In this document: one piece after another, positions 29,338-29,761 of the stretch
Position numbering within the stretch: position 1 is the first letter of the stretch
How the letters are laid out: each line of letters starts with the position of its first letter
From: a virus
Lineage: Duplodnaviria > Heunggongvirae > Uroviricota > Caudoviricetes
Virus record (IMG/VR): IMGVR_UViG_2778261543_000009
Location: 1-31,069 of that record
Length of the DNA: 31,069 nucleotides
Direction: 5' to 3' (one strand)
The notes under the pieces: model-generated
The model's input: only the letters and a program-made list of their open reading frames with translations
What the model was told of the DNA's origin: nothing
Database searches by the model: none
Program-made: the position numbers and the translations under genes

Positions 29338-29520
29338 TCAGTTCTGCATACACCGCCGGACACTATCAACAATTTCGCAGACCTGAGAAGCTGTATCGAA
29401 AAGCTGGCGCGCCTTATCCAGGCTGACGCACCCCACCAATAAAAAAGGCACCAGTATCGCTACCAGTGCCCATTTTGCCGCCGCTCGCGGCATTCTGTGT
29501 GTCCAGTGTTTTCGGCTCAT
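29338..29520 (-). CDS. Small lipoprotein (lipobox LLVGC), function unknown
   Basis: 60 aa; signal peptide with lipobox L-V-G-C; mature part about 30 aa with two further Cys and no Pro-rich region; its start is 1 nt after the stop of the upstream membrane peptide. Confidence 0.45.
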   Translation of the reverse strand: MSRKHWTHRMPRAAAKWALVAILVPFLLVGCVSLDKARQLFDTASQVCEIVDSVRRCMQN

Positions 29521-29521
29521 A

Positions 29522-29635
29522 TCACCACCAACGCACAGCCCAAATCAGAACAGCGACCGCCACAAGGCGAATTGCAAAGGCCGCAGCCCTTGTCAAATCA
29601 AGGCTCGCGGGAGTTTCCACTTCAATACCTTTCAT
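29522..29635 (-). CDS. Small single-transmembrane peptide (37 aa), coupled to the lipoprotein gene
   Basis: MKGIEVETPASLDLTRAAAFAIRLVAVAVLIWAVRWW; GAGG about 9 nt upstream; sits directly downstream of conserved hairpin E2. Confidence 0.3.
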   Translation of the reverse strand: MKGIEVETPASLDLTRAAAFAIRLVAVAVLIWAVRWW

Positions 29636-29726
29636 AATGGACAACCTCAAAAAGAATCTTTTATACTTTCCCACGAGGATTTTCTCCGTACTCACTACTC
29701 ACAATTTCCTCTTTGACGTGAAAACT

Positions 29727-29761
29727 AAAAACCCCGGACTGTTCCAGCAGCCGGGGTTTTT
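29727..29761 (-). terminator. Conserved hairpin element E2, bidirectional terminator-like, about 100 nt downstream of the endolysin gene
   Basis: AAAAACCCCGG ... CCGGGGTTTTT (11-bp stem) with loop ACTGTTCCAGCAG; U-runs follow on both strands; 29/33 identical to E1 (9825-9857). Confidence 0.5.

Follow-up and report, generated by a model that had tools for sequence, protein, structure and literature searches.

To our knowledge, the way in which phages without spanins breach the outer membrane of their host is known in one case only, the disruptin of phage phiKT, a soluble protein that lacks a lipoprotein signal. The preprint on this protein (gp28) describes it as a cationic antimicrobial peptide that serves as the outer-membrane disruptor of a spanin-less coliphage (bioRxiv 10.1101/515445). 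In about one in eight phages of Gram-negative hosts, a spanin could not be recognised (Kongari et al., 2018; PMC6139136). Here, we describe a lysis module of this kind in a 31,069-nucleotide (nt) stretch of Caudoviricetes DNA (IMG/VR record IMGVR_UViG_2778261543_000009; the whole stretch is hereafter termed the window), in which the endolysin gene is followed by a hairpin (E2), a gene for a membrane peptide of 37 amino acids (aa; pep37), and a gene for a 60-aa prolipoprotein (lipo60). Our findings suggest, at what we judge to be about an even chance, that lipo60 is a stand-alone substitute for spanins in disrupting the outer membrane. The peptide belongs to a separate, mobile cassette with a probable antisense RNA.

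The minus strand carries every gene of the lysis cassette as well as the two small open reading frames (ORFs), in the order holin_8, holin_3_7, glycoside hydrolase family 108 (GH108) endolysin, hairpin E2, 37-aa ORF, and 60-aa ORF (Table 1). The first-pass annotation of the window had described the two small ORFs as lying 1 nt apart after hairpin E2, in a lysis module without a recognisable spanin, and both descriptions held. The pep37/lipo60 junction reads TGG TGG TGA T ATG. When all six frames of the window and of the other 21 kb of the closest prophage were scanned for lipoboxes, lipo60 alone emerged as a credible lipoprotein. The same DNA was scanned for inner-membrane spanins (i-spanins), defined as ORFs that encode one N-terminal transmembrane domain (TMD) followed by 45 or more residues, and no candidate was returned. 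Likewise, no i-spanin was found 3' of lipo60 in loci where lipo60 directly follows the endolysin gene, and Rz/Rz1 is annotated neither in this prophage nor in the complete genome of the isolated phage phiP27. In some relatives, a 93-aa gene separates the M15 endolysin gene from pep37; the possibility that it encodes an overlooked i-spanin was rejected, since its product is soluble and has no TMD.

lipo60 is a real gene under purifying selection. Among 42 unique nucleotide versions, the ratio of the proportions of non-synonymous (pN) and synonymous (pS) differences is 0.26 in the ORF frame versus 0.84 and 1.66 in the other two frames. The encoded protein, MSRKHWTHRMPRAAAKWALVAILVPFLLVGC followed by VSLDKARQLFDTASQVCEIVDSVRRCMQN, comprises a long basic n-region (RKHWTHRxPR), an invariant h-region, a lipobox in which the lipidated Cys is residue 31, and a short mature part that contains C31, C48, and C57. 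These cysteines, to which the first-pass annotation had drawn attention as residues that might be conserved, are invariant in an alignment of 25 diverse homologues, as is the h-region. Position +2 is occupied by V, A, or T throughout these 25 homologues and a Lol-avoidance signal is absent, which suggests that the lipoprotein would be sorted to the outer membrane. The mature part contains four basic and four acidic residues and is net neutral, is not Pro-rich, and has no hydrophobic C-terminal segment.

Homologues of lipo60 (n = 160) were detected only in Enterobacteriaceae, with identities down to 68%. A profile search of genome contigs with the lipo60 alignment, in a collection that holds one genome per species, yielded three loci and contributed the Lelliottia homologue, which has 61% identity. 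lipo60 DNA is present in 352 of 5426 complete E. coli genomes; about 35 genomes carry a copy of 77% identity, which is unannotated in the six listed. The gene was left out of the RefSeq annotation of E. coli strain SC418 (locus L001, 6339-6521), where pep37 is annotated, and it is unannotated in the phiP27 record (L104, 20679-20858). The phiP27 gene L32 was considered as the lipoprotein gene and rejected because it is in another frame. In many other genomes, the NCBI annotation pipeline PGAP calls a 51-aa form of lipo60 that starts at Met10, yet many homologues have Thr at this position.

Scans against Pfam, NCBIfam, and PADLOC matched neither lipo60 (Pfam and NCBIfam at E-values up to 1) nor the peptide, and a profile search of the PDB returned no significant match to lipo60. 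The sole PHROG match of lipo60 is phrog_7528, which is labelled 'unknown function.' AlphaFold2, run on the 25-sequence alignment, predicted a single long helix at low confidence (mean predicted local distance difference test score of 68). Homology to Braun's lipoprotein (Lpp) was considered, given that the mature part continues in the Lpp heptad register after the Cys (hhalign probability of 55%); however, this match was driven by the signal peptide and lipobox and was dropped.

To describe the context of lipo60, we compiled a census of 80 IMG/VR loci that share the holin of the window, most of which are close relatives (holin at least 96% identical). Full-length lipo60 is present in 66 of these 80 loci and comes after the endolysin gene in every intact locus. 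In 37 of the 66, and in E. coli W (NC_017664, 1516984-1517166), it directly follows the endolysin gene with no peptide gene between them, while it lies behind the hairpin-pep37 cassette in 14 and behind a two-peptide cassette in 15. Spacing in the direct arrangement, which is the ancestral form, is tight. The M15 stop codon and the lipo60 ATG are separated by 14 nt in L018 and E. coli W, the lipo60 ATG overlaps the GH108 stop codon as ATGA in Yersinia kristensenii (L101) and in a Logan contig (L103), and lipo60 overlaps the GH108 gene by 20 nt in Lelliottia, where it lies behind a different holin. The endolysin-lipo60 order was identified in E. coli, Salmonella, Citrobacter, Cronobacter, Yersinia, and Lelliottia, and is kept with two unrelated endolysins (M15 and GH108) and at least three packaging modules (lambda-, HK97-, and P27-like). 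The P27-type cassette comprises holin_8, holin_3_7, an M15 or GH108 endolysin, and, as a conserved fourth gene, lipo60.

The P27-type cassette is present in the Stx2e phage phiP27 and in the Stx2k phage phiSTEC1575-Stx2k, and in some prophages it is neighboured by genes for LT-II and pertussis-like toxins. LT-II-like A/B genes lie downstream of the P27-type cassette in Y. kristensenii (L101, 5988-7140) and in phage Rac-SA53, in the latter of which LT-IIa genes stand in place of lipo60. Pertussis-like S1 genes lie upstream of the cassette in Cronobacter (L102, 1489-2217) and in Rac-SA53 (L098, 1276-2507 and 4298-5438).

The strongest indication of a function for lipo60 comes from the genes that occupy the same slot in other phages. 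No Rz/Rz1-like gene was detected by tblastn (with Rz1, mEp390 gp52, and similar queries) in any of the 66 loci with intact lipo60. In all four of the distant cassettes that combine holin_8 and holin_3_7 (mEp390, ENT39118, Klebsiella ST13-OXA48phi12.2, and Yersinia vB_YpM_41), canonical two-component spanins are encoded right after the endolysin. In vB_YpM_41, the GH108 gene and the i-spanin gene overlap by 4 nt at stop codon and ATG, exactly as the GH108 gene and lipo60 do in Y. kristensenii. lipo60-like DNA and Rz/Rz1 were found together at three loci, and lipo60 is frameshifted or truncated at all three: Stx phage GER2 (L108, 3488-3681), the Stx2 prophage of HUSEC2011 (L110, 3501-3684), and L087 (6107-6250). 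The HUSEC2011 copy is the only one of the 77%-identical copies that was examined, and it is a decayed remnant. The remnants lie upstream of terminase genes, beside an opposite-strand gene for an Ais-like lipopolysaccharide heptose-phosphate phosphatase. Such a pattern is what non-orthologous replacement would be expected to leave, and it is our main argument that lipo60 supplies the outer-membrane step of lysis. Rz was reported in 277 of 279 surveyed Stx phages (PMC8136144), and the two exceptions are likely to be those of cluster C, whose metallopeptidase endolysin matches the P27-type cassette. phiP27 itself is absent from both the spanin families and the spanin-less list of Kongari et al. 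(2018).

If lipo60 substitutes for spanins, it would be made only from the late transcript, translationally coupled to the gene in front of it. The product would then cross the inner membrane, receive its lipid at Cys31, and be delivered to the outer membrane. Once the holin had fired and the endolysin had degraded the cell wall, the outer-membrane-anchored lipopeptide of 30 residues would by itself destabilise the outer membrane, and would thereby perform or enable the last step of lysis. It could not act as spanins do because it is too short to cross the periplasm and has no inner-membrane partner; in this respect, it would be closer to the colicin-release lipoproteins of about 30 residues than to a periplasm-spanning spanin. 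We infer outer-membrane sorting and disruption, as we do the antisense RNA described below. The first-pass annotation had offered a noncanonical outer-membrane disruption module as one option for the two small genes together. It is the best supported of the options that were offered, for the lipoprotein alone and not for the pair.

The signal-peptide codons of lipo60 contain a hairpin (Table 1) that appears to be constrained beyond its coding function. Its core is nearly invariant at synonymous sites among 35 unique versions that come from several genera and range down to 61% aa identity, and the sole common change, GCGA to GCAA in the loop, retains the GNRA type. The rare Ile codon ATA is used without exception in this region, and pS is 0.119 in codons 17-31 versus 0.273 in the mature part. 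The hairpin looks like an intragenic intrinsic terminator that is under constraint at the RNA level. If so, lipo60 expression would depend on Q-antiterminated transcription. Because both the basic n-region and the h-region are under purifying selection, the data further suggest that the signal peptide, its RNA hairpin, or both have a function of their own beyond targeting.

Several observations weigh against lipo60 as a spanin substitute. It has no sequence similarity to Rz1 (e.g., Pfam PF06085), to colicin lysis proteins, or to entries in Pfam, NCBIfam, or the PDB, and our literature search found no paper that mentions lipo60 or the peptide and none that ties lipo60 to lysis. The counts in the census are not independent events, since the loci are mostly close relatives, and the three decayed copies beside Rz/Rz1 may trace to only two events. 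How a mature lipoprotein of 30 residues that does not span the periplasm and has no evident inner-membrane partner would act is conjecture. In addition, the slot after the endolysin is a hot-spot for morons in some relatives (bor, LT-II genes, and a phosphatase gene), and because it takes morons, position alone is no proof of a role in lysis. Finally, five otherwise complete cassettes have neither lipo60 nor a spanin; lipo60 may be dispensable, or those prophages may be defective.

The last two of these observations also speak for a different reading that we consider unlikely, namely that lipo60 is a moron-like accessory lipoprotein, expressed late and dispensable for lysis, that might act in receptor masking, superinfection exclusion (as do Cor and Llp of T5), or envelope modification, while the outer membrane is breached otherwise or not actively. 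Known exclusion factors include small, disulfide-containing phage lipoproteins (Llp and Cor), which is in keeping with such a role. However, lipo60 has no room for a promoter of its own, given that its ATG overlaps the endolysin stop codon or lies 14 nt beyond it, and expression in a lysogen is unlikely because the putative internal terminator would block transcription that is not antiterminated. Moreover, lipo60 travels with lysis genes rather than with tail or receptor-binding modules, lambda-, HK97-, and P27-like morphogenesis modules all come after it, PADLOC returned no match, and the gene has decayed where Rz/Rz1 is present. Superinfection exclusion, a second option in the first-pass annotation, is disfavoured on the same grounds: the coupling to the endolysin gene, the co-travel with the lysis cassette across packaging and tail modules, and the PADLOC result.

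We regard as improbable a role for lipo60 in modulating lysis, either through its timing or as a periplasmic or outer-membrane checkpoint on the endolysin or the two holin-family proteins. The presence in the cassette of two holin-family proteins, whose roles are assigned by family match, would accommodate such a role, as would the tight coupling of lipo60 to the endolysin gene. However, lipo60 accompanies both M15 and GH108 endolysins, and in Lelliottia a different holin, and a specific protein partner is unlikely given two unrelated endolysin types and differing holins. It is also hard to see how an outer-membrane lipoprotein would reach the endolysin while this is still in the cytoplasm, ahead of holin triggering.

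The peptide gene is likewise real and under purifying selection. The 37-aa ORF (29522-29635, minus strand) encodes MKGIEVETPASLDLTRAAAFAIRLVAVAVLIWAVRWW, whose transmembrane segment is C-terminal and includes an invariant FAIR motif, and whose last residues are RWW. The IMG/VR copies are near-identical and hence have no power for estimating the ratio of non-synonymous to synonymous substitution rates (dN/dS), and selection was gauged against the copy in the Stx2 prophage of HUSEC2011. The two copies differ at 24 of 111 nt, with 19.5 synonymous and 4.5 conservative non-synonymous differences (pS of 0.71, pN of 0.054, and a ratio of 0.076, against 1.97 and 6.05 in the other frames). The annotated length of 37 aa is probably too short. 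An in-frame GTG at 29674, 13 codons 5' of the ATG, is preceded by a Shine-Dalgarno sequence, is replaced by ATG in some copies and in a variant termed 'B' (see below), and falls inside the PHROG profiles, which makes it probable that the peptide starts there and comprises 50 aa.

Hairpin E2 accompanies every peptide gene, is missing where lipo60 directly follows the endolysin gene, and forms the 5' end of an inserted cassette. Compared with the direct arrangement, the layout in the window reads as an insertion of approximately 340 nt, made up of the hairpin and the peptide gene, between the endolysin gene and lipo60 with translational coupling preserved; the peptide would have arrived together with hairpin E2. 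The same cassette is found in a different setting in enterohaemorrhagic E. coli (EHEC) and Stx lambdoid prophages, which have the order S holin, lysozyme R, hairpin, pep37, and Rz/Rz1. There, pep37 stops 1 nt before the Rz ATG, and the junction (TGGTGGTGATATG) is letter-identical to that in the window (TGA-T-ATG). pep37 lies between R and Rz/Rz1 in HUSEC2011 (L110, 2182-2295), in L111-L118, and in phage GER2 (L108, 2169-2282), where it is labelled 'hypothetical protein,' and the Stx-type variant of the peptide (P0133) occurs in more than 2500 indexed blocks of the sequence collection. Because the same cassette and junction precede lipo60 and Rz/Rz1 alike, the hairpin-peptide cassette appears to be a portable element that inserts ahead of whichever gene comes after the endolysin. 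In the variant 'B' cassette (L019, 5405-5703; L102, 3662-3996), two membrane peptides are encoded between the hairpin and lipo60, pepB1 (48-60 aa; phrog_1115) and pepB2 (44 aa; phrog_4906), and pep37 looks like a shortened relative of pepB1.

These distributions bear on whether the peptide and lipo60 act together. The first-pass annotation had treated them as a functional pair, and one form that such a pair could take is a miniature two-component spanin, with the inner-membrane peptide bound to the outer-membrane lipoprotein. In favour of this form, a single nucleotide separates the genes, translational coupling between them is probable, and the TMD of the peptide is C-terminal, a topology that Kongari et al. 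(2018) explicitly left open for i-spanins. However, the majority of intact lipo60 genes (37 of 66 loci, and E. coli W) have no peptide gene, some lipo60 loci have the different, two-peptide version instead, and in EHEC prophages this peptide is encoded ahead of a full Rz/Rz1 pair. Furthermore, approximately 15 plus 30 periplasmic residues are far too short to bridge the periplasm. We consider a miniature spanin very improbable. The absence of the peptide gene from most intact lipo60 loci and the presence of its cassette ahead of Rz/Rz1 indicate that the two genes are not a dedicated pair and apparently have separate histories.

The hairpin cassette beside lipo60 had also been taken as the second of two copies in the window. 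A related hairpin is indeed present at the position of 'copy 1' (Table 1). However, when 9440-9880 and 29330-29780 were aligned, the hairpin alone was common to both and the peptides belonged to other PHROG families, and a duplicated gene cassette was rejected. On the minus strand, the copy 1 hairpin is followed by ORFs at 9584-9799 (65-71 aa, no PHROG match), 9468-9566, and 9202-9300. Among them, two tandem hydrophobic peptides of 32 aa match phrog_6632 and end in IRWR and IRWW, resembling the RWW end of pep37. The copy 1 peptides are small-peptide morons amid tail genes.

A putative antisense RNA may provide a link between the peptide cassette and the gene behind it. The sequence TGGACA-18 nt-TATACT is the sole promoter-like site found in 28800-31069 and is directed against the peptide gene. 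It is near-invariant in window-, Stx-, and B-type cassettes, while synonymous sites in the flanking coding sequence are nearly saturated. It lies in the 33 nt 5' of the pep37 ATG, where HUSEC2011 departs from the window at a single position, against a pS of 0.71 in the coding part. The RNA predicted to start here, near 29674, would be antisense to the Shine-Dalgarno sequence of the 50-aa form and to its GTG start codon, and 29661-29764 (plus strand) has a sub-threshold Rfam match to the P22 sar RNA (23.3 bits versus a gathering score of 43; E = 0.01-0.06). This layout makes probable a sar-like or type-I-toxin-like antisense control of the peptide and, via coupling, of the downstream lysis gene; the RNA would control translation of the peptide and by this route that of the lipoprotein or spanin. 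AsxR and Pas, small RNAs known from the literature, are located elsewhere, near stx or the holin gene. EHEC/Stx prophages contain the same antisense element, located between their R and Rz genes (L110, 2040-2180).

A toxin/immunity-like pair had been the third option for the two genes. The lipoprotein does not qualify as a partner in such a pair, yet the peptide gene, with its conserved antisense promoter and bidirectional terminator, has the layout of a type I toxin or of sar. The peptide and the antisense RNA could accordingly form a self-contained type I toxin-antitoxin module (for addiction or abortive infection) that landed beside an unrelated lipo60. This reading concerns the peptide only and is compatible with lipo60 as a spanin substitute; we treat it as possible but doubtful. 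The protein is small and hydrophobic, the sub-threshold sar match covers the Shine-Dalgarno and start region, and the near-identity of the 33 nt 5' of the ATG stands out from the diverged coding part. However, the Rfam match, at 23 versus 43 bits, is well under the gathering score, and part of the conserved 33 nt may be kept merely as coding sequence of the 50-aa form. In addition, in the cases seen, the cassette is always directly 5' of, and coupled to, a gene for the outer-membrane step, and this single, coupled position fits a function in lysis better than an independent toxin-antitoxin system.

By sequence match, the window is of a lambdoid prophage type that is integrated at the Rac/ttcA site of E. 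coli. Window positions 29000-30000 are 100% identical to strain SC418, and elsewhere the window departs from collinearity with the SC418 record, which indicates that it derives from a close relative. Relative to the otherwise identical SC418 prophage (NZ_LR778147.1; L007, 12614-14607), collinearity is lost at approximately 7180-9890 of the window, in the tail moron region, and offsets shift by approximately 800 bp; an ORF in this non-collinear region (7222-7968, minus strand) encodes a 248-aa secreted protein with a signal peptide. On the 3' side of lipo60, a conserved 35-aa ORF (29057-29164, minus strand; phrog_8025, E = 1e-22) encodes a product without a TMD and recurs in many related loci.

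Table 1. Features of the lysis region and of the related hairpin in the window (MFE, minimum free energy).
Feature	Position	Strand	Evidence and remarks
lipo60, 60-aa prolipoprotein	29338-29520	-	phrog_7528; lipobox LVGC; 30-aa mature part
Terminator-like hairpin within lipo60 (11-bp stem, GCGA loop, U6 tract)	29437-29471	-	MFE -21.4 kcal/mol, z = -3.05
Small membrane protein (pep37), 37 aa from ATG 29635 or 50 aa from GTG 29674	29522-29674	-	WP_001305859.1; phrog_4493/1115, function unknown
Promoter-like site TGGACA-18 nt-TATACT, antisense to the peptide gene	29638-29667	+	10/12 consensus matches
Predicted antisense RNA of ~93 nt, ending at hairpin E2	29674-29766	+	Putative; fold -30.4 kcal/mol, z = -4.9
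Hairpin E2, bidirectional, intrinsic-terminator-like, flanked by A-tract and T-tract	29727-29761		MFE -24.7 kcal/mol, z = -4.7; terminator scan
GH108 endolysin, 181 aa	29862-30407	-	PGAP 'glycoside hydrolase family 108 protein'; PF05838 and PF09374 in homologous loci
Second holin-family protein, 92 aa, three hydrophobic segments, Phage_holin_3_7	30409-30687	-	PGAP 'phage holin family protein'; PF05449; phrog_217, E = 1.5e-37
Holin, 130 aa, Phage_holin_8 (first gene of the cassette)	30677-31069	-	PGAP 'putative holin'; PF16931 in identical loci; phrog_198, E = 2e-42
'Copy 1' hairpin	9821-9866		46 nt with 83% identity to E2; unrelated ORFs for membrane peptides follow on the minus strand

If a lipoprotein of 30 residues were sufficient for the last step of lysis, it would be a new and very small lysis effector. 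It would bear on the release of toxins from prophages of Shiga toxin-producing (STEC) and enterotoxigenic (ETEC) E. coli, and would provide an annotation marker for cassettes that are now termed 'spanin-less.' lipo60 is common in E. coli and has nonetheless been overlooked by annotation, as in the RefSeq record of the closest genome and in phiP27. The position of the hairpin-peptide cassette ahead of Rz in thousands of EHEC genomes suggests in turn that Stx phages subject the last lysis step to a post-transcriptional control that has gone unnoticed. More tentatively, and with less likelihood than we attach to spanin substitution as such, lipo60 could represent a third class of phage outer-membrane disruptor after spanins and disruptins. 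Such a class would consist of one gene for a 30-residue lipopeptide, possibly with its own cleaved signal peptide acting in the inner membrane, and would complete lysis with no periplasm-spanning complex. Its expression would be subject to the intragenic terminator and, in part of the phages, also to the antisense-controlled leader-peptide cassette that is common to Rz/Rz1 of Stx phages.

Among known systems, lipo60 resembles outer-membrane spanins (o-spanins) such as lambda Rz1 in that it is a precursor of approximately 60 aa of an outer-membrane-type lipoprotein with conserved periplasmic Cys, and in that its gene directly follows the endolysin gene in a late cassette, in the slot that Rz/Rz1 holds behind pep37 in EHEC prophages. 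Unlike o-spanin genes, it has no adjacent, overlapping, or embedding gene for an i-spanin (a type II membrane protein with a periplasmic coiled coil), is itself neither embedded in nor overlapping a partner gene, and has no match to Rz1 or to any other Pfam family. The mature part is also just 30 aa, is not Pro-rich, and is predicted at low confidence to be helical. With unimolecular spanins of the T1 gp11 type, lipo60 shares the status of a single lysis-cassette gene that encodes a lipoprotein signal and stands in place of Rz/Rz1, whereas it lacks their C-terminal TMD and its mature part falls far short of spanning the periplasm.

The colicin lysis or bacteriocin release proteins (BRP; Lysis_col) are similar in a different way. 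These are very small lipoproteins with mature parts of about 27-35 aa that permeabilise the outer membrane in an OmpLA-dependent manner. The mature part of lipo60, at 30 residues, is of this size and might act on the outer membrane without a partner, and its signal peptide is unusually conserved, which is reminiscent of the stable signal peptide of BRP. However, lipo60 has no Lysis_col match (Pfam, E-values up to 1), it belongs to a phage late operon rather than to an SOS-controlled colicin operon, and its mature part is predicted to be helical with two Cys, in contrast to the Gly/Ser/Thr-rich composition of BRP. Like the disruptin of phiKT, lipo60 would be a non-spanin answer to the last lysis step in an E. 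coli phage, although it would be lipid-anchored and its mature part is net neutral. It differs from Cor and T5 Llp in its linkage to lysis genes, as opposed to a receptor-binding tail module, and in the absence of room for a promoter of its own. The peptide cassette, in turn, would resemble the P22 sar RNA and type I toxin-antitoxin loci (hok/sok and zorO/orzO) in that it has a gene for a small hydrophobic protein with a predicted short cis-antisense RNA over its ribosome-binding region. The peptide is unrelated to Hok, Ldr, Ibs, and Zor, and its cassette, in contrast to these systems, is always coupled to a downstream lysis gene.

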